Assembly (NCBI GenBank): GCA_011371455.1
Contig: DRQN01000006.1
Location: 1 to 47,371 of the forward strand
DNA: 47,371 nt
Direction of reading: 5' to 3'
Source: Gammaproteobacteria bacterium
GTDB taxonomy: Bacteria; Pseudomonadota; Gammaproteobacteria; SZUA-152
Every line of letters starts with the position of its first letter. Position 1 is the first letter of the stretch. A program made the position numbers and the translations under genes. The notes under the pieces were generated by a model. The model did no database searches, had not been told where the DNA came from, and worked only from the letters and a program-made list of their open reading frames with translations. Shown here piece by piece: positions 10,509 through 34,601 of the stretch.

Positions 10509-11858
10509 ATGAGCACCTGGCAGCAATGCCTCGACTATCTCGAGGGAGAACTATCCCCGCAGCAGTTCAATACCTGGATTCGCCCCCTGCAAGTGGTGGA
10601 GGATGAACAGACCCTGCGCCTGCTGGCACCCAACCGGTTCGTCGCCGACTGGGTCTCCGAGCGTTTTCTCGACCAGATTCAGGGCTTCGTCTGCCAAAAG
10701 AAGGAAGACGCCGGCTTCGAAGTGATCCTCGAGATCGGCGCTTCCACGCCGCCGGCAAGCCGCACTACCACTCCCAAGGCCGACCCGGCGGCGGGCAGCG
10801 CAGGCAGAAAACGCGAACACAATACCTCGGTGGTGCACAGCAGTGGCCTCAATCCCGATGCCACCTTTGAAAACTTCGTCGAGGGCAAGTCCAACCAGCT
10901 GGCGCGCGCCGCCTCGTTCCAGATCGGCGAAAATCCCGGCGGCGCCTACAACCCGCTGTTCATCTATGGCGGTGTCGGTCTCGGCAAGACCCACCTGATG
11001 CATGCCGTGGGCAATCTTATCGTAAAGCAGAATCCCGGCGCCAAGGTGGTCTACCTGCATTCGGAGCGCTTCGTGCAGGATATGGTCAAGGCCTTGCAGC
11101 ACAACGCCATCGATGAATTCAAGCGCTTTTACCGCTCGGTCAATGCGCTACTCATCGACGACATCCAGTTCTTCGCCGGCAAGGAGCGTTCCCAGGAAGA
11201 GTTCTTCCACACCTTCAATGCCCTGCTGGAGGGACAGCAACAGATCATCCTCACCTGCGACCGCTATCCGAAGGAGGTCTCAGGCCTGGAGGAACGCCTC
11301 AAGTCCCGCTTCGGCTGGGGGCTGACCGTAGCCATCGAGCCGCCGGAGCTGGAGACCCGTGTCGCCATCCTCATGAGCAAGGCCGTGCAGCTGAAGATCG
11401 ACCTGCCCCAGGACGTGGCCTTTTTCATTGCCAAGCGCATCCGCTCGAATATCCGCGAGCTGGAGGGCGCGCTGCGACGCGTGTCCGCCAACGCACGCTT
11501 TACCGGCCAGCCCATCACCGTCGACTTCACCAAGGATGCGCTGAAAGATCTGATTGCCCTGCAGGAAAAACTGGTTACCATCGAGAATATTCAGAAGACA
11601 GTGGCGGAATATTATAAGATCCGGGTATCCGAGCTGCTGTCGAAGCGGCGCAACCGCTCCATTGCGCGCCCGCGACAGATCGCCATGGCCCTGTCCAAGG
11701 AGCTGACCAACCACAGTCTGCCGGAAATCGGTGATGCCTTCGGCGGCCGCGATCACACCACGGTGCTGCATGCCTGCCGCAAGATCGAGGAACTCAAGAT
11801 CAGCGAGGTCAGGATCATGGAGGATTATTCAAACCTGGTCAGAACCCTGTCGAGTTGA
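10509..11858 (+). CDS. dnaA: Chromosomal replication initiator DnaA
   Basis: [28 protein letters not shown]-domain, AAA+ Walker [11 protein letters not shown], and C-terminal DNA-binding domain (...[16 protein letters not shown]). I prefer the ATG at 10509 to the TTG at 10482. Confidence 0.97.
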
Positions 11859-12088
11859 TGGGGATGAGCTGTGGATAAGTTGGTTGAAACTGAAAACAGA
11901 CAAAGCATTCACATTTTGTCCACAGCTTGTACCGCGTATTCAAGCGGGCTTATCCGGTACTTATCGTGAGTTACAACCAATTGAAATATATAGATAAATA
12001 CAGGTTATCCACAGGACACTGGATGACTAATAACAGTAATAACAAGTTTTTCTTAATAATATAAATATTAAGTAACAGGACGATTGAT
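11859..12088. promoter_or_regulatory. Candidate oriC / DnaA-box cluster with an AT-rich unwinding-like region in the dnaA-dnaN spacer
   Basis: Perfect DnaA boxes sit at 11870..11878 (TGTGGATAA) and 12005..12013 (TTATCCACA). An 8/9 box (TTGTCCACA) is at 11916..11924 and a 7/9 box (TTATCCGGT) at 11950..11958. A very AT-rich stretch at 11975..12075 carries tandem TAATAACA x2 (12028..12045) and the inverted repeat CTTAATA/TATTAAG (12052..12072). Confidence 0.55.
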
Positions 12089-13201
12089 ATGAAATTTTCG
12101 ATCCAACGAGAATCCATCCTGAAACCCCTGCAGATCATTACCGGGGTGGTGGAGCGTCGTCAGACCTTGCCGGTACTGTCCAACCTGCTGCTCAGCGTCA
12201 GCAGTGACAGGGTGTCCATGACGACGACGGATCTGGAAGTGGAAATGATAGCCAGCGTTCCCCTCAATGGTGCCGAAGCCGGTGACGGTGACATCACGCT
12301 GCCTGCACGTAAGTTGGTGGACATCTGCAAAGCCTTGCCCGAGGGTGCGCAAATCGACATCGTTTACGATGAGGAAAAGGAACGGGCAATCATCAAGTCC
12401 GGACGCAGCCGCTTCAATCTGGCTACCCTGCCGGTCAGCGAGTTTCCCAATATCGAGGAGGTCAAGGGCGTATTCGAGTTCCAGGTACCACAAAAGGTAC
12501 TCAAGCAACTGATCGAGAAGACCGCCTTTGCCATGGCGCAACAAGACGTGCGCTATTATCTGAACGGCCTTCTTCTCGAGGTCGACAGCGGCATGGTTCG
12601 TACCGTGGCCACCGATGGTCACCGCCTGGCCATCTGCGAGCACGAGGCCGACGTCAGTCCAGGGGAGAAAATCCAGGTCATCCTGCCCCGAAAGGGCGTC
12701 ATGGAGCTGGCCCGGCTGCTGTCTGACAGCGATGAACCCGTCAAGGTCATGGTCGGCAACAATCACCTGAGCATGGTACTTGAGGACTATGCTTTTACCT
12801 CCAAACTCATCGATGGCAAGTTTCCTGATTATCAGCGCGTGATTCCGCGTGATTCCGACAAGGACGTGACCGCCGATCATGAACTGTTAAAGCAGGCGCT
12901 GGTGCGTACCTCCATTCTTTCCAACGAGAAATACCGCGGCATCCGGCTGCGTCTGCAGGATGGCCTGATCCAGGCGCAGGCAAACAATCCGGAGATGGAA
13001 GAGGCCGAAGAAGAGATCGAGGTGCAGTACACGGGCCCCAAGCTGGAGATCGGCTTCAACGTGAGTTACCTGCTGGACGCGCTCAATGTCATCGATACGC
13101 CCAATGTGACCCTGGCCCTGGGTGACGCCAATAGCAGCTGCGTGATGCGACCAGAGGGTCAGACGGCCTGCACCTACGTCATCATGCCGATGCGCCTATA
13201 G
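12089..13201 (+). CDS. dnaN: DNA polymerase III beta sliding clamp
   Basis: 370 aa starting MKFSIQRESILKPLQIITGVVERRQTLPVLSNLLL and ending ...YVIMPMRL, both typical of DnaN. Confidence 0.97.
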   Translation: MKFSIQRESILKPLQIITGVVERRQTLPVLSNLLLSVSSDRVSMTTTDLEVEMIASVPLNGAEAGDGDITLPARKLVDICKALPEGAQIDIVYDEEKERAIIKSGRSRFNLATLPVSEFPNIEEVKGVFEFQVPQKVLKQLIEKTAFAMAQQDVRYYLNGLLLEVDSGMVRTVATDGHRLAICEHEADVSPGEKIQVILPRKGVMELARLLSDSDEPVKVMVGNNHLSMVLEDYAFTSKLIDGKFPDYQRVIPRDSDKDVTADHELLKQALVRTSILSNEKYRGIRLRLQDGLIQAQANNPEMEEAEEEIEVQYTGPKLEIGFNVSYLLDALNVIDTPNVTLALGDANSSCVMRPEGQTACTYVIMPMRL

Positions 13202-24726: not shown

Positions 24727-25500
24727 CTATCGACGTGTTCCCGCCGGTGTAACCGCGGTGCAGCCAGCGGCCTGCATCGACCCATCATCCTGTATCTTCA
24801 AGGTGACGAATGTCTTGTCGGGTCTCCGGGTGACGGTGATTTCCCGGCAACCGGGGTTGTAACGGTAGTCGAGATAGCAGTGATCACGGGGGTTGGAGAG
24901 GATCTTCGGGGTGAAGATGACGCCGATGTCGCCCTTGCAGTGGGCGGAGCGGGTGATCAGTCCGGGATGGCCTTCGCGGTGCAGGCGTTGGCCGATCTGT
25001 TGGCTGAGCTGGTATTCGCCGGGGGTGGCTAACTGGGGATAGTCGGCCAGCTTGGGGCGGAAGTCGAACAGCAGGCCGTCGCATTGAACCTGGAACACGC
25101 GCCGTTCGCCGATGATGGTTTTTGGCCGTTGCGGGAAATCGGCATCGTGGAGAAATTGCAGCCAATGGTGGGTGGTTTCGAAGATGCTGGTTTCGAGGCT
25201 GTCGGCGCCGTACCAGACACCGAAGCGGCCATCGGAATAGCGGCTGCGGCTCCAGTTTTCGAACGGGTAGCGGATGGCGGCGCAATAGCGGGCCTGCTCG
25301 AAGGGGCGGTTGATAATGGGGGTGTCGCCGAAGTCGGCGGGCTTGGCGGCGAGTTCGGCGGCGATGGCGGTGTGCCAGTCGTCGGCCTGGTCGCTGAGGT
25401 CGTCAAAGAGGTTTTGCGATTCGCGCAGGCTGACGATGTTGCGCAGCCAATCGCCGTGGTAGTCGATGCTGCAGAGTTCGTTGAGCAGGCGGTCGATCAC
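24727..25500 (-). CDS. RES-domain toxin (NAD+-targeting RES family)
   Basis: 257 aa with the R...E...S signature context [23 protein letters not shown] ... GLITRSAH. The GTG start overlaps the upstream antitoxin stop by 4 nt (GTGA). Confidence 0.85.
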
Positions 25501-25913
25501 TGGCCGCGAACCTGGTCGAGGTAGCTGCGCAGCATGAGCAGGCCGGCGAAGCCGTGCTGGCGAACCACCTGCACGGGGGCGAGGTTGTCGAAGGCCCGAT
25601 TGGGGGCACGCATCCAGGCATAGGCCAGTTCGCGGTTGTGGGGAAACAGCAGGCGCAGGGATTTGTGGATGCTGAGCAGGTGGCCGACGCGGTCCAGCAG
25701 GTCGCGGTTGCTGCCCAGGGGCTGGCCCTTGCGATAGCGGGCGAGGGTGGTGCGGCTGCCGGCGTCGAGGCCGAGCAGGTCCAGCTGTTCCTCGTTGCTG
25801 AGCTGCCAGTGCTGGAACAGCTGCATGACCATGCGGGCAAGGCCTTGTCGGCTCTCTTTGCTGTGGATATCTGGCCTGGGGGCATGGGTATCTTGGGGTG
25901 TGAGCAAGGCCAT
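25497..25913 (-). CDS. Xre/MbcA/ParS-type antitoxin (DUF2384-like C-terminal toxin-binding domain)
   Basis: ...[72 protein letters not shown] is typical of antitoxins paired with RES toxins. I prefer the ATG at 25913 to the TTG at 25934. Confidence 0.85.
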
Positions 25914-25927
25914 TTCGGGCTCCAATA

Positions 25928-25947
25928 GTAACATCTGTTACATTATA
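25928..25947 (-). promoter_or_regulatory. Putative toxin-antitoxin promoter -10 element with an adjacent palindromic operator
   Basis: The minus strand reads TATAAT (25947..25942) directly followed by the palindrome GTAACAGATGTTAC (25941..25928), then a GGAG RBS and the antitoxin ATG. The only -35 candidate is a poor TTGCCA at 19-nt spacing. Confidence 0.45.
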
Positions 25948-26037: not shown

Positions 26038-27948
26038 TCAGAACAGATCGACATTCTCCGGTGGTTTGTTTTCCGTGTCGTCGTTGGCGGCGGCCTTGCC
26101 GCTGAAGCCGGCGACCAGTGATTCCAGCTGTACGGAAAACTGCGACAGGTCGCCGTTGTCGGAGATGTTCTTGCGCGCCAGTTCGGACAGCTCGCGCACG
26201 CTTTGGTCGATCTTGCGGATATTGTCACGCACGGTGGCGGCCAGTTGGGACTGTTGTTCGGCCTGGGCGGCCACCTGTACGTTGCTGTCGCTGATGCCCT
26301 CGACGGCGCTGGCGATGAGGGCGAAGGTCTCACCGGCGGCCTGGGTGCGTTCCAGGTTGAGGACGGAGATCTTGGCGCTGCGTCCCATGAGGTCGACCGC
26401 TTCCTGGTTACCGGCGCGAATGGTGTCCATGAGCTTGCGTACTTCGTCGGTGGCGTCGGTGGTGCGTTTCGAGAGGGCGCGCACCTCGTCGGCGACCACG
26501 GCGAAGCCGCGGCCCTGCTCGCCGGCCCGCGCGGCCTCGATGGCGGCATTGAGGGCCAGCAGGTTGGTCTGCTCGGCGATGGTGACGATCATGTCCAGCA
26601 CCTGGCCGACATCTTCGTGGTGCCGGGTGAGAGCGTCGATGCTTTGCTCCAGCTGCTCGATCTCGTGTTGCATTTCCTGCATGCCGTCCACCGCGCTGCT
26701 GACCACGGCGCGGCCCTTGACGGCCTCTTGGCGGACGTCCTGCGCGGTCTCGCTGGCAAGGCTGACGGCCTCATTCACCTGCTGGCTGCTGTCGGCCATC
26801 TGTCCGATGGTATCGCCGAGCTGGGTGATGGCTTCGACCTGTTCTTCGATGGAGCTGCTGGTGGCCTGGGTGATTTCCTGGGCGCGCAGGCTGCTTTGGG
26901 AAAGATTGGTGGCCACCATGAGAACCTGTTGCACGGTCTGGTCCAGCTTGCCGGTGAAACGGTTGAAGGCGCGACCGATCTGTGCCGTTTCGTTGCGCCC
27001 TTCCTCGGGCAGGCTTACACCCAGCGCGGAATGGCCGTCGGCGATGTGCGCCATGGCGGAGGTGATACGCGACAGGCTGCGGCTGATGCTGCGCGCGATC
27101 AGCAGGCTCAGACCGACCAGGCCGATGATGAGAATCAGGGTGCCGATGAAGACGAGGCTTCGCTGGCTGCGCTGTGACTTCTTGATGGCGGCACGGGCCT
27201 TTTGGGTGAGGGCGTCGAGTTCGGCCAATGCCTGCTGGGTGTTGGTGGCCAGTCTGGCGTGTGGGCCCTGATGGCGTTCCCGCTTGCTGTCCACCAGTTG
27301 GTGGAAATACTGCGCATACTCGTTGAGATCCTGCTGGATATCGCCTTGGGTCGATGCGTCGAGTTCCGTCCGGGCCACGGCCGTCAGCAGGTCGGCATGG
27401 GCGCGGTCGAAGCGGCCGACATACTTTTCGTCCTCGCGCAGCAGGAAGTCCTTTTCATGGCGCCGCAGCATCAGCAGACCGACCAGCAGGGCATCGTTGC
27501 CGGTGGCGCGAAAGGTATCCTCGACCCGATGGGCCGCCTGGCGCAGGGCGCCGCGCAGGCCGCTTGCCTCGTCGAGGCCGATGCGCTGCGTCAGAGCCAC
27601 CAGCTGACTGAAGTCCGTGGCCATGTCATTGAGATGCCGATAAAAGGTGTCGAGGCCGCTGGTATCCAGGCCCAGCTTGTCCATGGTTTGGTCGATTTCT
27701 TGCAACTCCGCTAGCAGGGCCTGCTGTTCATGGAAGAAGTCATCGCGGGCCTGCGGATTTTTGCTGAGCAGAAATTCACGCTCAGCAGCTTGCATGGCCT
27801 GCATATCGGCCTCGGCATCGAGCAGTTGCGCCAGGCCCAGCTGCAGCATATCGGCACGCTGGGAACTGATCTGCTGCATGGCCAGCAGCAACAGCATGGC
27901 GAGGGTAATAATGGCGGAAAGCAGGAACAGACGGTGTTTGATTTTCAT
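26038..27948 (-). CDS. Methyl-accepting chemotaxis protein
   Basis: 636 aa with an N-terminal TM helix, a periplasmic helical sensor region of ~250 aa, a second TM helix, a HAMP domain and the highly conserved signalling hairpin (...[37 protein letters not shown]). Confidence 0.95.
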
Positions 27949-28061
27949 GGACTGGCAGGGGTAATGGGGTCGGTATCATTAGCGGTTCATCGCCTGCGGA
28001 CTTGAGGATAACCGAGCATCTTACACACACTTGACATAATTTCCTGGTGGGGGGCAGGGTT

Positions 28062-28073
28062 TATGTATACATA
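28062..28073. promoter_or_regulatory. 12-bp perfect palindrome TATGTATACATA upstream of the islet operon (possible operator)
   Basis: It lies 27 nt upstream of the ORF1 ATG, followed by a TAAAAT -10-like hexamer and the RBS GGGAGG (28089..28094). A TTGACA hexamer at 28031..28036 has no properly spaced -10. Confidence 0.35.
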
Positions 28074-28099
28074 AAATATTTGAATCTAGGGAGGAAATT

Positions 28100-29428
28100 A
28101 TGCAAAAGGTTATTGCTAGCACTGTTCTGAGTGTCTTTCTTATGGCGGGATGCGGTGAGGAAGACCAAACCGAACCATCCAACCAACCTCAAGTCGAATA
28201 TGCCTCACCCGAGACGGCCTCTGTTGAAATCCGGAATTACATGAATGCCGACTGGCTCTATAACGAGTATTTCGGGGAGTACGGTTTTCCGGACGAATTT
28301 AAGGCCACAGTTATCGACGACATCAAGCTGTTGGCCAACGGTTTTGCCTTGCAATTCGCCAGAGGCGAAGAGGTAGAACAGAACATCGCCGACTTCCGTA
28401 ACGGTATGCTGTTTTTGCAGGTTAGCGGGCAGTTTGGCGCCATGATTTCCCAGATGAGTGAGGCTTGGTACAGCGGTGACTATGAGGCGATGAGCGCCAG
28501 GCCTTCAGCGGTCGATATGGATTCCCTTCCTGACTCCGCGCGTTACTTCGATCTCGGAGTGCCGACCGAGGAGGAGATTTCACGATTGAAGGCGTTAGAA
28601 GCGGAAACGGCGAAAGATGAAGCAGCCTACCGCGTGGCACAGGAAGAACTGGTAGAAAAATATAATCTGCCATACAAGCTTCCAAATCGACGCACAAAAT
28701 ACATTATCTACACCCCGTCTATGAAGGGTGGCGGTGGGAAGAACAATAAGAAAGACGAGAAACCCGAGTACAGGCATGAATCGAATATTTCAGACTGGAC
28801 TTGGCGTCCTGGCGATATTATCTGGAGTGATGGAGCGGCCGGTGTGGGTCACATGGGCATCGTGACTCACTTCAATAATACGGGAGGCGAGATAGCGAGT
28901 GGTGTGCTGCCTTCGTCTTGGAGTCGGCCAAGTGGTGCAGTGTTGTCGATCGTGGATGCCAATACTGGAGGGGTCAATCTGCATCAAGGTGCTCTCTTAA
29001 TGGATGCATGGCAAAAGAAGTACGATACTGTCAGACGATATACTTACGCCTTTTATTTCGGATGGCCCGGCTTTATGCCGCCTTGTGACTACAAGGACTG
29101 CACGCTCAGTGGAAAAAACTATTATAACTACGTTACGCAGCGCATGTTTGCTATTGTCAATTGGGCAATGGGTCAGGTTAACAAGCCTTATAATTGGAAC
29201 TTTTTCAACAAGAACGCAGATGACAGTACATATTGCTCACAGCTTGTCTGGAATGCCTACAGACAGACAGCCAGGCCTTCGCCGCGCCCCGAATGGAGGA
29301 ATATTGATTTGGATAGTAATGGAGGCTGGATCGTTTATCCTAGCGACATTCTAAATCATCCTCTTGTGGTAAATATGGCGGAATCGAAGAAAAAGAAGGT
29401 TGGGGCATGCAAATATTATTGTTTCTAA
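28100..29428 (+). CDS. Lipoprotein with a C-terminal permuted papain-like (NlpC/P60 superfamily, YiiX/C92-like) domain
   Basis: Lipobox LMAGC (MQKVIASTVLSVFLMAGCGEE). An N-terminal helical region is followed by the G/K-rich linker SMKGGGGKNNKKDEK. The order is then GDIIWSDGAAGVGHMGIV (His) before DDSTYCSQLVWNAY (Cys), as in permuted papain-fold amidases. The C-terminal tail is ESKKKKVGACKYYCF. Confidence 0.7.
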   Translation: MQKVIASTVLSVFLMAGCGEEDQTEPSNQPQVEYASPETASVEIRNYMNADWLYNEYFGEYGFPDEFKATVIDDIKLLANGFALQFARGEEVEQNIADFRNGMLFLQVSGQFGAMISQMSEAWYSGDYEAMSARPSAVDMDSLPDSARYFDLGVPTEEEISRLKALEAETAKDEAAYRVAQEELVEKYNLPYKLPNRRTKYIIYTPSMKGGGGKNNKKDEKPEYRHESNISDWTWRPGDIIWSDGAAGVGHMGIVTHFNNTGGEIASGVLPSSWSRPSGAVLSIVDANTGGVNLHQGALLMDAWQKKYDTVRRYTYAFYFGWPGFMPPCDYKDCTLSGKNYYNYVTQRMFAIVNWAMGQVNKPYNWNFFNKNADDSTYCSQLVWNAYRQTARPSPRPEWRNIDLDSNGGWIVYPSDILNHPLVVNMAESKKKKVGACKYYCF

Positions 29429-30666
29429 TCACGGTAATTGCATTACTGGGCTGCAAGCCGGGTGCTGAAACGGTGGCTGTGGTCGATTGCGCCAATACCT
29501 TTGTGGTGTCAGGGAGCAGTCAGTTTGATTTGCTGGCCTACGACAAAACATCGAATGCAATACGCCTGATTCAGCACTATGAAGGGGAGCAGAGGTATCA
29601 GAGCAGTTATATTTGTGAGCGCGATATTGTCTTGTCATCCTACCAGTTTCGAGGCACGGCAAAAGAGGACGCGGGGTTTGAGATTGTTCACCGGAACGGT
29701 AAGGCTGAGCAAGTAAAGTTTACGGATGGGCCCGTAGACTTTGTTTCATACAAGGGCGGCATTCTTGTGAAAACAAATCGCCTGCATGCTGAGCCGGTGG
29801 ATGAGTCTCTGGGTGATTCACCTTATTTGATACGTGACAGAGAGCGTGGCTATTCGCACCGTAAGGACGGTAAAGAGGTGTTTCTTTATACTCACTATAT
29901 CCCATTTTCACATCTGGATGACCGAAGTTTCCGTCCGGAGCATTCTTATCGTTTTAGTGCGGTATTGGGTGATAGCGCAGGGATCTATGGCGATATACTG
30001 CTTGGCCCAGAGACTGTAACACCTGAAACCGGACTGTACCGGTTAAACCTGGTTACAGGACGCCGTGTCCGGCTGAGTAAGGTAGCGGGCAGTCTCAATG
30101 ATATTCATGTTCGCGGTAACGGTGATCGTTACTACCTGATATGGCCTGAGACCAAGAAATATCTCGCTGCCATAAAAGGCCACAAACATCTGCTTGAGCA
30201 GCCTCGCCCAATACCCGATGACCCCGTAGAGGCGCGCTTGCAAGCCTATTACCGTGGCATGGAGCGCGATACCCTGTACCGTTTCGAAGAGGATCCTGTG
30301 AACGGTAAGTGGGCGTACACCAAATTGAAAAAAATCGACGGGGGTATATATCATTATATTTCAGTGGACGAGGCGATTTATATTTTTACCCGCGATCGGC
30401 GGGCGATTCGCTACGATTCGGTGAAGGACACCTGGCAGGAGTTTCCCTTTGAATACAGTGATCGCTTTGAGCGCATAAACGCCATCGGGGATGGTCTGGC
30501 CTTTACGCTGAAGAGTCGCGATGGAAGCCTGGCTCGGGTCTATGTGGTTTCCCGGGATTTTTCCCGCATCAGCAAGCCGTTGACTATTGACCGTGATTGG
30601 TCGGATACGCGAATTTCTACCCGCTACAATTTTGTTTCCACTATTCCGAAATGGCTTGGGCAGTGA
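29407..30666 (+). CDS. Lipoprotein of unknown function (419 aa)
   Basis: Lipobox in MQILLFLITVIALLGCKPG. It overlaps ORF1 by 22 nt and is overlapped by ORF3 by 16 nt. I recognise no motif. Confidence 0.75.
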   Translation: MQILLFLITVIALLGCKPGAETVAVVDCANTFVVSGSSQFDLLAYDKTSNAIRLIQHYEGEQRYQSSYICERDIVLSSYQFRGTAKEDAGFEIVHRNGKAEQVKFTDGPVDFVSYKGGILVKTNRLHAEPVDESLGDSPYLIRDRERGYSHRKDGKEVFLYTHYIPFSHLDDRSFRPEHSYRFSAVLGDSAGIYGDILLGPETVTPETGLYRLNLVTGRRVRLSKVAGSLNDIHVRGNGDRYYLIWPETKKYLAAIKGHKHLLEQPRPIPDDPVEARLQAYYRGMERDTLYRFEEDPVNGKWAYTKLKKIDGGIYHYISVDEAIYIFTRDRRAIRYDSVKDTWQEFPFEYSDRFERINAIGDGLAFTLKSRDGSLARVYVVSRDFSRISKPLTIDRDWSDTRISTRYNFVSTIPKWLGQ

Positions 30667-31064
30667 GATTTCTTATTCCTCTACTTTTTTACCTATTGCC
30701 GTTCAGTATATTTGGTGAGCAATTGTACTGGTACGACGATGACCGAAAAGTGCTTATCCATGAGCGTAGCTACGATGCAACTTTGGGCATCTATGTCTAT
30801 CGCTTTGGCAGTTCATCAGATGCCCCCAGACGTCAGCTGACCGGCGATATCATCGTCAAGTTTTCCGGTATCCAAAGCGCGGATAGTCTTGCGGATTTTC
30901 AGGCAAGGTACTCCGTTACATTGGTGAAAAATCTCCCCGTTGGTACGGGGTATTATATTTTCAGCGCTATCGACAGGGAGACCTCTCTGGACATTGCTAA
31001 CCAAATTTACCGTGATGATGAAGTGCAATTTGCTTATCCTGACTGGCTGACCCTGGGCAGATGA
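30651..31064 (+). CDS. Secreted free-standing subtilase prodomain-like (inhibitor I9 / S8 pro-domain-like) protein
   Basis: The ATG at 30651 gives the signal peptide MAWAVRFLIPLLFYLLPFSIFG. The body GDIIVKFSGIQSADSLADFQARYSVTLVKNLPVGTGYYIFSAIDRETSLDIANQIYRDDEVQFAYPDW follows the beta-alpha-beta-beta-alpha-beta prodomain pattern. It ends ...LTLGR and its stop overlaps the S8 gene start (ATGA). Confidence 0.6.
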   Translation: MAWAVRFLIPLLFYLLPFSIFGEQLYWYDDDRKVLIHERSYDATLGIYVYRFGSSSDAPRRQLTGDIIVKFSGIQSADSLADFQARYSVTLVKNLPVGTGYYIFSAIDRETSLDIANQIYRDDEVQFAYPDWLTLGR

Positions 31065-32557
31065 GTCGTTCAAGTCTGTTTAGCGCCTGTTTGATTTTTC
31101 TTTCAGGTTGCGGCGGTAGTAATTATGAGTCCGATCCCCTCGTAACCGAGCAGTGGTATCTTTCCGGCAGCGACCTTGATGGAAACATGGTGCATATCAA
31201 TCTGAATCAGCACTATTACAAAGGCCGGGGCGTGCTGGTTGCCACAGTGGACAACGGTATTGACGTATTTCATGAAGACCTTCGGGCGAATATCGGAGAA
31301 GGGAGTTACAGCTACTTGCCCGAGGAGTATGGGTTTTCGCAGAAGGCTGATCATGGCACGGCGACTGCCGTTATTATCGCCGCCATCGAAGGCAATGGAA
31401 AGGGGATAAAAGGTATCGCGCCACAGGTCAGGATTATCGGTTTCAATGCCTTGAGGTTGGCGACGGTCAGTAATCTGGCGGATGCCCTGGTGAGAGAGAA
31501 AGAGCGCGTATGGATCTCTAATAACAGTTGGGGAGATATTAATAGCTGGGGTGAGCCGCTGGCGTTGAAAAGCCTGATACGGGATGCGTTGATCGATGGC
31601 GTTACTGATGGCAGAAGCGGCCGGGGTATTGCCTATGTTTTTGCTGCCGGCAATGGTGATGGTGTCATTAATGATCTGCCGATTGATAACGTCAATTATA
31701 GCGGCCTGGTTAATAACCGTTACACCATTCCCATTTGTGCCGTTGATGAATATGGAAAAAAGGCGGCTTACTCTGAGAAGGGCGCGACACTGATAGTTTG
31801 TGCGCCATCAAAAGGACGTGTGGAAGGAGTGGGTATCACGACGACCGATGTAACCGGGGAGGATGGGTACAACCCCACATTGTTTCCGGATGACTTTGAA
31901 AACCGGGGCTATACGGGTAATTTCGGCGGTACATCTGCGGCTGCACCGATGGTATCGGGTGTGGTGGCCTTGATGCTGGAAGCCAACTCGAGGCTCTCAT
32001 GGCGGGATGTGCGGATTATCCTTGCTAGGAGCGCCAGGCGGAACGACTCATCCGATTCGGACTGGGTTAGGAACGGGGCTGGTTATCCTGTCAACCACAA
32101 ATACGGTTTTGGCCTGGTAGATGCGGACAGGGCGGTGCAACTGGCGAAAGAGTGGGCGGGCGTGGGCGATGAAAAGATTCTTGAGTATCAGCAGGATGTT
32201 GGCGAGCCGATTCCAGATGGTGAGAATGATGGAGTACAAAATGAAATTCTTGTGGATGAAGATCTTCACATAGAATTTGTCGAGGTTTTCTTTGATGCTA
32301 GCGATCACCCAAACCTGGGGGATCTGGACATTGTGTTGACCTCGCCCGAGGGAACGGAAAGTGTTCTGGCCGAACAGCACAATGAGATGTTTGGCGTGTT
32401 TCAGTACAACAACTGGCGATTTGGAACAATGCGGCATTTGGGGGAGCGGTCACGGGGGAAATGGCAGCTGAAGGTTGTCGATAAGGCTGCGGGCGGCAGT
32501 GGTACATTTATTAACTGGCGGATCAAGGTTTATGGTACTAGGGAAAATCACAGTTGA
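31061..32557 (+). CDS. Kexin/furin-like S8 serine protease lipoprotein with a C-terminal proprotein-convertase P-domain and no prodomain
   Basis: Lipobox LSGC (Cys17). DPLVTEQWYL...VATVDNGIDVFHEDL (Asp64) aligns to the start of mature Kex2-type enzymes. The remaining catalytic elements are His in HGTATAVIIAA, the oxyanion Asn in NNSWG and Ser in GGTSAAAPMVSGVVAL. The P-domain tail is ...GDLDIVLTSPEGTESVL...GKWQLKVVDKAAGGSGTFINWRIKVYG. Confidence 0.88.
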   Translation: MSRSSLFSACLIFLSGCGGSNYESDPLVTEQWYLSGSDLDGNMVHINLNQHYYKGRGVLVATVDNGIDVFHEDLRANIGEGSYSYLPEEYGFSQKADHGTATAVIIAAIEGNGKGIKGIAPQVRIIGFNALRLATVSNLADALVREKERVWISNNSWGDINSWGEPLALKSLIRDALIDGVTDGRSGRGIAYVFAAGNGDGVINDLPIDNVNYSGLVNNRYTIPICAVDEYGKKAAYSEKGATLIVCAPSKGRVEGVGITTTDVTGEDGYNPTLFPDDFENRGYTGNFGGTSAAAPMVSGVVALMLEANSRLSWRDVRIILARSARRNDSSDSDWVRNGAGYPVNHKYGFGLVDADRAVQLAKEWAGVGDEKILEYQQDVGEPIPDGENDGVQNEILVDEDLHIEFVEVFFDASDHPNLGDLDIVLTSPEGTESVLAEQHNEMFGVFQYNNWRFGTMRHLGERSRGKWQLKVVDKAAGGSGTFINWRIKVYGTRENHS

Positions 32558-32640
32558 TGGCCGCAGATCATTTTGTCTTCTTTGAGTGGGAACCTCTCGA
32601 GTTTGGAAATAATCTGCTGCGTAGATGAGGGCGGCAGAAA

Positions 32641-32669
32641 TTGGCGGTTTTTTTGCCAATCAGTACAAT
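32641..32669 (+). promoter_or_regulatory. Putative sigma70 promoter of mnmG (TTGGCG-17 nt-TACAAT)
   Basis: The hexamers have 17-nt spacing and lie about 30 nt upstream of the mnmG ATG. Confidence 0.4.
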
Positions 32670-32699
32670 GGCCAGTCCCTCTCTCCACGGTTTGGCGTG

Positions 32700-34601
<1,902 letters not shown>

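Follow-up and report, generated by a model that had tools for sequence, protein, structure and literature searches.

What joins a furin-like protease, a small secreted protein and two further lipoproteins in one compact run of genes, and what might such a set do in a bacterial envelope? The question is raised by positions 28028-32557 of contig DRQN01000006.1 (GenBank assembly GCA_011371455.1), a stretch of 47,371 nucleotides from a gammaproteobacterial metagenome-assembled genome (MAG) of the lineage SZUA-152, the whole of which is referred to here as the window. Between a methyl-accepting chemotaxis protein (MCP) gene and mnmG, the window holds a discrete AT-richer island of four overlapping genes on the + strand, termed the cassette. 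The four genes form a single, horizontally acquired unit that recurs across phyla, and their products are predicted to comprise a kexin/furin-type lipoprotein protease without a prodomain, a small exported protein encoded next to it, a permuted NlpC/P60 lipoprotein and a lipoprotein modelled as a β-propeller.

Organization and composition of the cassette

The island was delimited by an open reading frame (ORF) scan together with base composition, and comprises the following features:

28028..28099, + strand: leader, putative promoter and ribosome-binding site; conserved and moving with the cassette, on the basis that DNA homology to a second locus, L001 (see below), starts at 28028
28100-29428, + strand: ORF1 (family F1), 442 aa, predicted lipoprotein
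29407-30666, + strand: ORF2 (F2), 419 aa, predicted lipoprotein
30651-31064, + strand: ORF3 (F3), 137 aa counted from the ATG, predicted secreted protein
31061-32557, + strand: ORF4 (F4), 498 aa, predicted lipoprotein

The ORF scan reproduces the overlaps of 22, 16 and 4 nt (ORF1/ORF2, ORF2/ORF3 and ORF3/ORF4, respectively) that a preliminary description of this DNA, made from the sequence alone, had listed for the four same-strand genes. The genes are translationally coupled and constitute a self-contained operon with its own leader, which contains TTGACATAATTTCCTGG...GGGTTTAT...ACATAAAAT and a GGGAGG ahead of the ATG. The role of the leader as a promoter is putative, and scans for consensus promoters and terminators gave nothing above shuffled expectation.

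The composition of the cassette is distinct from that of its surroundings, with a guanine-plus-cytosine (GC) content of 0.50 overall versus 0.62, and of 0.45-0.54 in 500-nt windows within the cassette versus 0.60-0.74 on either side; the earlier hand counts of a lower-GC stretch were thus roughly right. GC at third codon positions (GC3) is 0.544, 0.521, 0.493 and 0.545 for ORF1, ORF2, ORF3 and ORF4, respectively, compared with 0.798 +/- 0.053 (minimum 0.681) for the 28 other genes of the window, placing the cassette approximately five standard deviations (SD) under their mean. The ratios of non-synonymous to synonymous substitution (dN/dS) relative to the copy in L001 (ORF1 0.165, ORF2 0.144, ORF3 0.398, ORF4 0.104) show that all four genes are kept by purifying selection.

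Export signals were called by eye from the sequence. ORF1, ORF2 and ORF4 have lipoboxes (ending ...FLMAG-C18, with Cys18 at 28151-28153; ...ALLG-C16, with Cys16 at 29452-29454; and ...FLSG-C17, with Cys17 at 31109-31111), and ORF3 has a hydrophobic, Sec-type leader ending ...SIFG22. The lipobox cysteine is conserved in essentially all homologues of ORF1, ORF2 and ORF4 (G/A/S-Cys), and the +2 residue of these three is mostly not Asp. All four products are therefore predicted to be exported, three of them as lipid-anchored lipoproteins, consistent with the earlier assignment of a Sec or lipoprotein signal to each.

Co-occurrence across genomes

Loci were found by searches with ORF1 and ORF2, and all ORFs at those loci were then scored with hidden Markov models of the four families. 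The core trio of ORF1, ORF2 and ORF4 recurs, with its order nearly always kept, in more than 20 loci of Pseudomonadota, Campylobacterota and Desulfobacterota; the order F1-F2-(F3)-F4 is held in Gammaproteobacteria, Burkholderiales-type taxa, Campylobacterota and Geobacteraceae, with ORF1 identity down to ~28%. The protease gene lies beside ORF1 in ~22 of the 27 informative loci. The hosts are aquatic, sediment and hydrothermal bacteria. Since more than 20 independent loci share the gene order, the four genes form a single functional unit, as the gene overlaps had suggested at the outset. The arrangements are as follows:

ORF1-ORF2-ORF3-ORF4: L002, L004/L010 (Halarcobacter), L005, L006, L009 (Sulfuricurvum), L011/L027 (Methylococcaceae), L017 (Sideroxydans), L022/L023, L026, L028, L029, L033 and L036
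ORF1-ORF2-ORF4, without ORF3: L014 (Comamonadaceae), L015 (Geobacteraceae), L030 and L042/L043
ORF1 and ORF4, without ORF3 and with no ORF2 homologue detectable between them: L032
Rotated order ORF4-ORF1(-ORF2), without ORF3: L034 and L040

ORF1 and ORF2 also occur together without an adjacent protease gene, in L003, where ORF1 is devoid of its N-terminal domain (N-domain), and in L025, where it is full-length. L003 suggested that the N-domain is confined to protease-bearing loci; L025 contradicts this, and the idea was abandoned.

Partial and extended versions were also observed. Three loci hold truncated ORF1 genes, consisting of the N-domain only or broken past the linker (L018 9932-10876, L019 9857-10735 and L038 3357-3974), with no ORF2 or S8 gene after them; these are probably decaying cassette remnants. 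A lone ORF2 relative (L021 8001-10207) has as its neighbour a gene that faintly matches the DPPIV_N and Tricorn propeller models, with no ORF1 or S8 gene nearby, and tandem ORF2 paralogues are the only genes visible on a 2.1-kb contig (L020 1-2114). In some cassettes an extra small, very hydrophobic multi-pass membrane protein, absent from the window, is encoded between the ORF2 and ORF3 homologues (L004 10315-10773, L005 10375-10650, L011 4283-4588, L015 12454-13032 and L022 2795-3082); in L015 it occupies the place of ORF3.

An all-against-all comparison of the flanking ORFs yielded no further recurrent neighbour. Two-component genes lie near five loci; they are generic and their position is not fixed. 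Among defence-system models, PADLOC assigned only a generic 'subtilase' model to ORF4 (E 6e-14) and nothing to ORF1-3, and PHROGs gave generic protease matches only.

Horizontal transfer

Locus L001, on a contig of another gammaproteobacterial MAG, holds the closest ORF2 relative outside the source MAG. It has the same leader and four genes, again as a GC trough, flanked by a thioredoxin-like gene and a LytTR/histidine-kinase two-component pair. A BLASTN comparison of the whole window with L001 produced a single match, covering window positions 28028-32551 at 84% identity, and the flanks share nothing. The homology begins 72 nt upstream of the ORF1 ATG and ends at the ORF4 stop codon, and these sharp limits indicate that the transferable unit is the leader plus the four genes. 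They agree almost exactly with the bounds of 28020-32560 drawn in the preliminary description.

In 12 of the 13 measured loci (the window and 11 of the 12 others), the cassette has a higher AT content than its flanks, with a difference of up to 21 GC points in a Comamonadaceae MAG; the lone exception is a 25%-GC Halarcobacter, where the cassette matches its host. The sites differ between loci, L001 and further loci each having other contexts. Within the window, no integrase or transposase adjoins the cassette, no tRNA gene was found, and flanking repeats were limited to matches of chance size, in keeping with what had been noted by eye.

Transposases flank the cassette in L004 only, a Halarcobacter MAG in which a DDE transposase and an rve-type transposase stand on either side of it (L004 1-7700, 13393-14586). 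Its neighbours there include two DNA methylases, an NgoFVII-type restriction enzyme and GmrSD, giving the region the look of a defence or mobile island.

The plasmid collection contained no ORF2 match, and for ORF1 only unrelated YiiX-like matches; the cassette was not found in the viral contig collection. In a set of 1.84 billion proteins, the ORF2 family counts just 40 representatives at 50% identity. The cassette is horizontally acquired, as had been judged from its composition, and because it is AT-richer in most loci, absent from the plasmid and viral collections and represented by so small an ORF2 family, it is a rare, accessory element that has been transferred repeatedly.

ORF4, a predicted furin/kexin-like protease

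ORF4 is assigned as a kexin/furin-type S8 lipoprotein protease with a P domain and no prodomain, which upholds the initial reading of this gene. The Peptidase_S8 domain spans aa 55-351 (31223-32113; E 6.7e-37), and the P domain, P_proprotein (PF01483), spans aa 415-489 (32303-32527; E 1.1e-18, 67.5 bits versus a cut-off of 21). Among PDB entries, furin and kexin match best (E ~1e-49, residues 24-494), ahead of the Aeromonas protease ASP (1e-34). The catalytic triad, aligned to that of furin, is composed of Asp64 (31250-31252), His98 (31352-31354) and Ser292 (31934-31936).

Just six residues lie between the lipobox Cys17 and the start of the furin alignment at residue 24, and a conserved DP..QWYL follows directly. 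With the catalytic domain beginning right after the lipobox, ORF4 has no cis prodomain, and the mature N terminus starts at the catalytic domain in every ORF4 homologue inspected. In the pairwise alignment, furin D306 at the S1 base is kept as Asp263, which is compatible with Lys or Arg at P1, and furin D154 and D258 are replaced by Asn and Ser. The NCBIfam matches to mycosin and PrtP are far under their cut-offs; the PrtP score (48 bits, partial, versus 300) places ORF4 outside the PrtP equivalog family.

ORF3, a small predicted secreted protein encoded beside the protease

Wherever it is present, the ORF3 gene is immediately upstream of the S8 gene and overlaps it, and it is found in ~70% of protease-carrying cassettes. 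An alternative TTG start at 30597 is also open; the homologues begin at the ATG. The protein has an N-terminal LYWYDDD hairpin-like segment and a C-terminal part ending ...AYPDWLTLGR. The pattern of conserved residues (alignments A2 and A9) is compatible with a β-α-β-β-α-β arrangement with AYPDW and a short tail at the end, and a prodomain-like fold is plausible.

No Pfam match at E <= 10 was obtained for five members and no NCBIfam match was obtained; ORF3 profiles searched against PDB sequences retrieved no prodomain or chaperone chain, and gave weak unrelated matches only (E 0.025-1.7). Alignment with hhalign to the prodomains of furin, PC1 and Kex2 fell in the expected register, though not significantly (P = 0.02 and a probability of ~2%). 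The preliminary description had called ORF3 a stand-alone, subtilase-prodomain-like protein: that it is a separate small exported product stands, and homology to subtilase prodomains is not established. The C-terminal residue is Lys or Arg in four of eight ORF3 lineages. Co-variation of this residue with the S1 pocket of ORF4 was considered and found no support, the S1 Asp being kept whatever the ORF3 terminus.

ORF1, a predicted permuted NlpC/P60 lipoprotein

The C-terminal half of ORF1 matches Pfam Peptidase_C92 (PF05708; 37 bits versus a cut-off of 27), a match found in 10 of 11 family members. His251 (28850-28852) precedes Cys379 (29234-29236), and both are invariant in the alignment of the 11 members. 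The family profile retrieves from the PDB the two solved YiiX-like structures, 3KW0 and 2IF6 (E ~1e-3), of which 3KW0 aligns at His251 and Cys379, and 2IF6 at Cys379. We thus assign the C-terminal domain, by homology, to the YiiX-like permuted NlpC/P60 fold, in agreement with the permuted papain-fold lipoprotein first proposed. The score against the NCBIfam YiiX equivalog is 17.7 versus a cut-off of 216, indicating that ORF1 is not a YiiX orthologue. Weak CHAP, NLPC_P60 and Amidase_6 matches also occur among family members.

The N-domain, of ~190 aa, is family-specific, with the motifs NADWLY..YFGEYG.P and ANGFALQ; the N-terminal half has no relatives in Pfam or the PDB and belongs to no curated family. 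Met208-Lys209 (28721-28726) is invariant in the 11 aligned members and recurs in most of the wider ORF1 set (L013, L022 and L042 differ). After this pair comes a segment of 15-40 aa that is rich in Gly, Lys and Pro and highly variable in length and sequence.

In the source MAG, ORF1 is publicly annotated as a shorter protein (P0005, 395 aa) that covers 89% of the 442-aa ORF; it apparently begins at an internal Met and hence omits the lipoprotein signal (region 28100-28240). The longer form is supported by homologues such as P0006 (443 aa).

Characterized permuted NlpC/P60 enzymes are lipid-directed, examples being YiiX with its fatty-acid pocket, the LRAT and HRASLS enzymes, LnsA in lipoprotein N-acylation and the phospholipase toxin Tox-Act1 (PMC3142127, PMC7387801, PMC12994826). 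By analogy, ORF1 probably targets an acyl or lipid linkage, in a phospholipid or a lipoprotein, rather than peptidoglycan. Of the amidase-like character first ascribed to ORF1, the permuted papain fold is thus retained, and the literature favours lipid or acyl substrates.

ORF2, a lipoprotein modelled as a β-propeller

ORF2 has conserved cysteines at Cys28 and Cys70 and no Pfam or NCBIfam match; weak Kelch matches (Kelch_6) occur in 5 of its 40 family members. An AlphaFold2 model computed from the 40-sequence alignment (predicted local distance difference test score (pLDDT) of 80.7 and predicted template modelling score of 0.83) is nearly all β, with approximately seven blades by our own strand count. 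An earlier model from a five-sequence alignment was dropped (pLDDT of 39.6). Foldseek searches with the retained model returned generic propellers, including tetrathionate hydrolase, AztD, the lipoprotein BamB and NirN, with template modelling (TM) scores of 0.4-0.5. ORF2 is therefore modelled as a β-propeller lipoprotein; it had been described as an orphan, which holds for the family databases and no longer for its predicted fold. Single members of alignment A8 strongly match unrelated Pfam families, namely MBG (1e-19), PLDc (5.5e-8) and Nse4_C (3e-7), and may be fusions or false family members.

Comparison with known systems

The closest functional parallel to ORF3 and ORF4 is provided by ASP of Aeromonas sobria (PDB entries 3HJR and 3WQB), which belongs to the third-best group of PDB matches to ORF4 (E ~1e-34); like ORF4, this bacterial S8 protease of the kexin type carries a P domain and lacks a propeptide. 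ASP needs the product of an adjacent small gene, an exported folding helper whose basic C-terminal residue, a Lys placed in the active site, lets it inhibit the enzyme temporarily (PMC5638518). However, ASP is a soluble secreted enzyme, whereas ORF4 is a predicted lipoprotein; the ASP chaperone gene is downstream of the protease gene, whereas that of ORF3 is upstream; ORF3 has no detectable sequence similarity to the ASP chaperone, so that the analogy is confined to function; ASP operons lack a partner of the NlpC/P60 or propeller kind; and some cassettes have no ORF3.

Dentilisin of Treponema denticola is encoded by prcB-prcA-prtP, a three-lipoprotein operon that, like the cassette, includes an S8 protease, and whose partner proteins are needed for protease stability; PrtP-dependent cleavage splits PrcA into an N-terminal portion that is acylated and a C-terminal portion that is free (PMC8167434). 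ORF4 matches the PrtP model in part. The two systems differ in that PrtP has its own N-terminal pro-region and dentilisin is described as unique to oral spirochetes; no kinship of PrcA or PrcB to ORF1 or ORF2 was noticed, the sequences not having been directly compared.

The components taken singly show similar limits. ORF1 shares the His-before-Cys order, with both residues invariant, with the YaeF/YiiX-like enzymes (PF05708; PDB entries 2IF6 and 3KW0; relatives LnsA and Tox-Act1), its Pfam score is above the cut-off and its top PDB matches are the two solved YiiX-like structures; it differs in adding the ~190-aa N-domain, the Gly/Lys-rich linker and the lipoprotein anchor, and the scores are modest. 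ORF4 resembles furin and kexin over the catalytic and P domains, with the triad and S1-base Asp kept, and differs in having no cis prodomain, in the two substitutions (D154 to Asn, D258 to Ser) and in its predicted lipid anchoring in a bacterial envelope. BamB is, as ORF2, a lipoprotein of ~400 aa, and its structures are among the Foldseek matches, but the similarity is that of a generic fold (TM 0.4-0.5, ~10% identity), with nothing pointing to a BAM role.

Literature searches aimed at a combination of furin-like, propeller and YiiX-like lipoproteins, with or without a small helper, turned up no description of one, as the preliminary description had also supposed, and neither Pfam nor NCBIfam has a curated family for ORF2, ORF3 or the ORF1 N-domain. 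Each component is of a known kind, and the partial analogues are ASP with its chaperone and dentilisin.

Proposed mechanism and alternatives

These parallels suggest a cascade, the steps of which are inferred. ORF3 would serve ORF4, which has no prodomain, as a dedicated external chaperone that assists folding and inhibits the protease temporarily, a role that the neighbouring ORF2 product has for Aeromonas ASP; the proposal draws on ASP being propeptide-less and dependent on an adjacent product, and on the Lys/Arg tails of four of the eight ORF3 lineages. Freed of ORF3, the membrane-anchored ORF4 would process a co-encoded partner. The most plausible cut would be in ORF1 after Met208-Lys209, at the start of the linker, given the retained S1-base Asp263 and the precedents of dentilisin and of the subtilase CspB, which activates the hydrolase zymogen pro-SleC (PMC3567191). 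Such a cut would part the lipid-anchored N-domain from the catalytic domain, leading to activation or release and resembling PrtP-dependent cleavage of PrcA. The ORF2 propeller may serve as a scaffold, adaptor or protective partner of ORF1, as ORF1 and ORF2 are the most persistent pair. ORF1 itself would act on an acyl or lipid linkage, by analogy with the characterized permuted NlpC/P60 enzymes. Taken as a whole, we hold this chain tentatively, its chances falling somewhat short of even.

Several observations weigh against it. The putative prodomain-like fold of ORF3 has no Pfam or PDB sequence match, and ORF3 profiles did not retrieve the ASP chaperone chain (3WQB) at E <= 10. Approximately 30% of S8-carrying cassettes have no ORF3 and their protease is also prodomain-less (L014, L015, L030, L032, L034 and L042), which implies that a chaperone is not universally required, and half of the ORF3 lineages have no basic C-terminal residue. 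ORF1-ORF2 pairs without an adjacent protease, both with the N-domain (L025) and without it (L003), indicate that processing is not obligatory for ORF1 function, and the Met-Lys motif may be structural instead of a cleavage site. The placement of ORF1 among YiiX-like proteins depends on modest scores (37 bits in Pfam, E ~1e-3 in the PDB).

In its broadest form, the proposal would make the cassette a new mobile class of bacterial proprotein-convertase system, in which a lipid-anchored furin-like protease, with a separately encoded prodomain-like chaperone/inhibitor, activates or releases a lipid-acting permuted NlpC/P60 pro-enzyme that a propeller holds or neutralizes, that is, a convertase-plus-substrate or pro-toxin-plus-immunity module of the Gram-negative envelope. 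We regard this generalization as speculative and rather unlikely.

An effector-immunity module is the alternative that survives best. ORF1 would then be a lipid-targeting, toxin-like enzyme on or off the surface, the S8 protein its releasing peptidase and ORF2 the immunity lipoprotein of the producer. The persistence of the ORF1-ORF2 pair without a protease (L003 and L025) would follow, and ORF2 relatives found alone (L021) or in tandem (L020, on a short contig) are reminiscent of orphan immunity genes; yet a 400-aa propeller is atypical as an immunity protein, and the retention of the protease in ~22 of 27 informative loci suggests a role more central than that of a releasing accessory. The sporadic occurrence of an AT-rich island across phyla, and the Halarcobacter copy between insertion sequence (IS) transposases beside restriction-modification and GmrSD genes, also fit a conflict system, although the flanking-ORF comparison linked no secretion or delivery apparatus to the cassette and PADLOC gave the generic subtilase match only. 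Tox-Act1 and TseH, both relatives in the permuted NlpC/P60 group, are lipid-targeting toxins that act against bacteria, and the immunity protein of Tox-Act1 is membrane-associated (PMC12994826); against this, the ORF1 catalytic domain is conserved rather than polymorphic, and its own lipoprotein signal would direct it into the envelope of the producer. We consider this explanation unlikely.

Alternatively, the protease and an acyl-hydrolase could be independent surface enzymes on a propeller platform, directed at external substrates in scavenging or in host or prey interaction, with no internal cascade. The kexin-like ASP and dentilisin attack external proteins (PMC5638518, PMC8167434), the mostly non-Asp +2 residues of the three large lipoproteins are compatible with an outer-membrane or surface location, and the hosts live in water, sediment and hydrothermal settings. 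This explanation, which we judge quite improbable, leaves unaccounted for the strict and deep co-inheritance of three families in fixed order without other partners, as well as the invariant Met-Lys and Gly-rich linker of ORF1.

A further possibility is control of cell-wall remodelling, with ORF1 as a peptidoglycan hydrolase set by the adaptor ORF2 and the protease ORF4, in the manner of NlpI-Prc with MepS or CspB with pro-SleC. NlpI-Prc degrades MepS, an instance of protease control of an NlpC/P60 hydrolase. Besides such precedents of proteases governing NlpC/P60 or cortex hydrolases, among them CspB (PMC3567191), the weak CHAP, NLPC_P60 and Amidase_6 matches in the ORF1 family would agree with it. 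The best ORF1 matches, however, are to the permuted YiiX-like branch, whose characterized members act on lipids (PMC3142127, PMC12994826), and the cassette, as a horizontally moved island, belongs to the accessory genome and not among housekeeping loci, making this role very doubtful. Finally, chance adjacency, or native core genes of odd composition, would suit the flanks free of mobility genes, tRNA and repeats, but can be set aside in view of the gene order shared by more than 20 loci of different phyla, the sharp-edged copy at an unrelated locus (L001), GC3 ~5 SD under that of the host genes and the overlapping start and stop codons.

Genes flanking the cassette

The features on either side of the cassette, between which it had correctly been placed, are of host-like composition:

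26038..27948, - strand: MCP gene, left flank, outside the cassette; Pfam MCPsignal and HAMP matches, GC3 0.81
32625..34601, + strand: mnmG, right flank, outside the cassette; identified from the ORF list and translation, GC3 0.93

The cassette stands beside genes of the replication-origin region: downstream of it are mnmG, rsmG, parA and parB, and upstream are dnaA, dnaN, recF and gyrB. The mnmG ORF opens at 32625 and the conserved MnmG N terminus begins at ~32700, the likely true start, so that the gap after the cassette is probably ~140 nt and not 67 nt. Two overlapping genes on the - strand, encoding a RES-domain toxin (24727-25500) and an Xre/MbcA/ParS-type antitoxin (25497-25934), lie directly upstream of the MCP gene; the RES/Xre pair (24727-25934), the MCP gene and the cassette together suggest that the region before mnmG gathers accessory genes. 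A second low-GC stretch, unrelated to the cassette, lies at ~11500-12500 at the dnaA-dnaN junction (~0.51 in a 1-kb window) and may be the replication origin or a DnaA-box region.

Significance

Furin and kexin have few bacterial relatives, and these are poorly understood; to our knowledge, most YiiX-like permuted NlpC/P60 enzymes of bacteria have no established physiological substrate. The cassette joins a predicted furin-like protease and a predicted YiiX-like enzyme in a compact unit that is conserved over deep divergence and has moved between phyla, and this conservation and transfer imply a selectable function that works in many envelopes. It offers a testable protease-substrate pair with a concrete candidate cleavage site, and it would be a second and independent case in which a subtilase without a prodomain is served by a helper from a separate gene. 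If the effector-immunity explanation were true, the cassette would add a lipoprotein-borne, protease-released lipid toxin to the known antibacterial arsenals.

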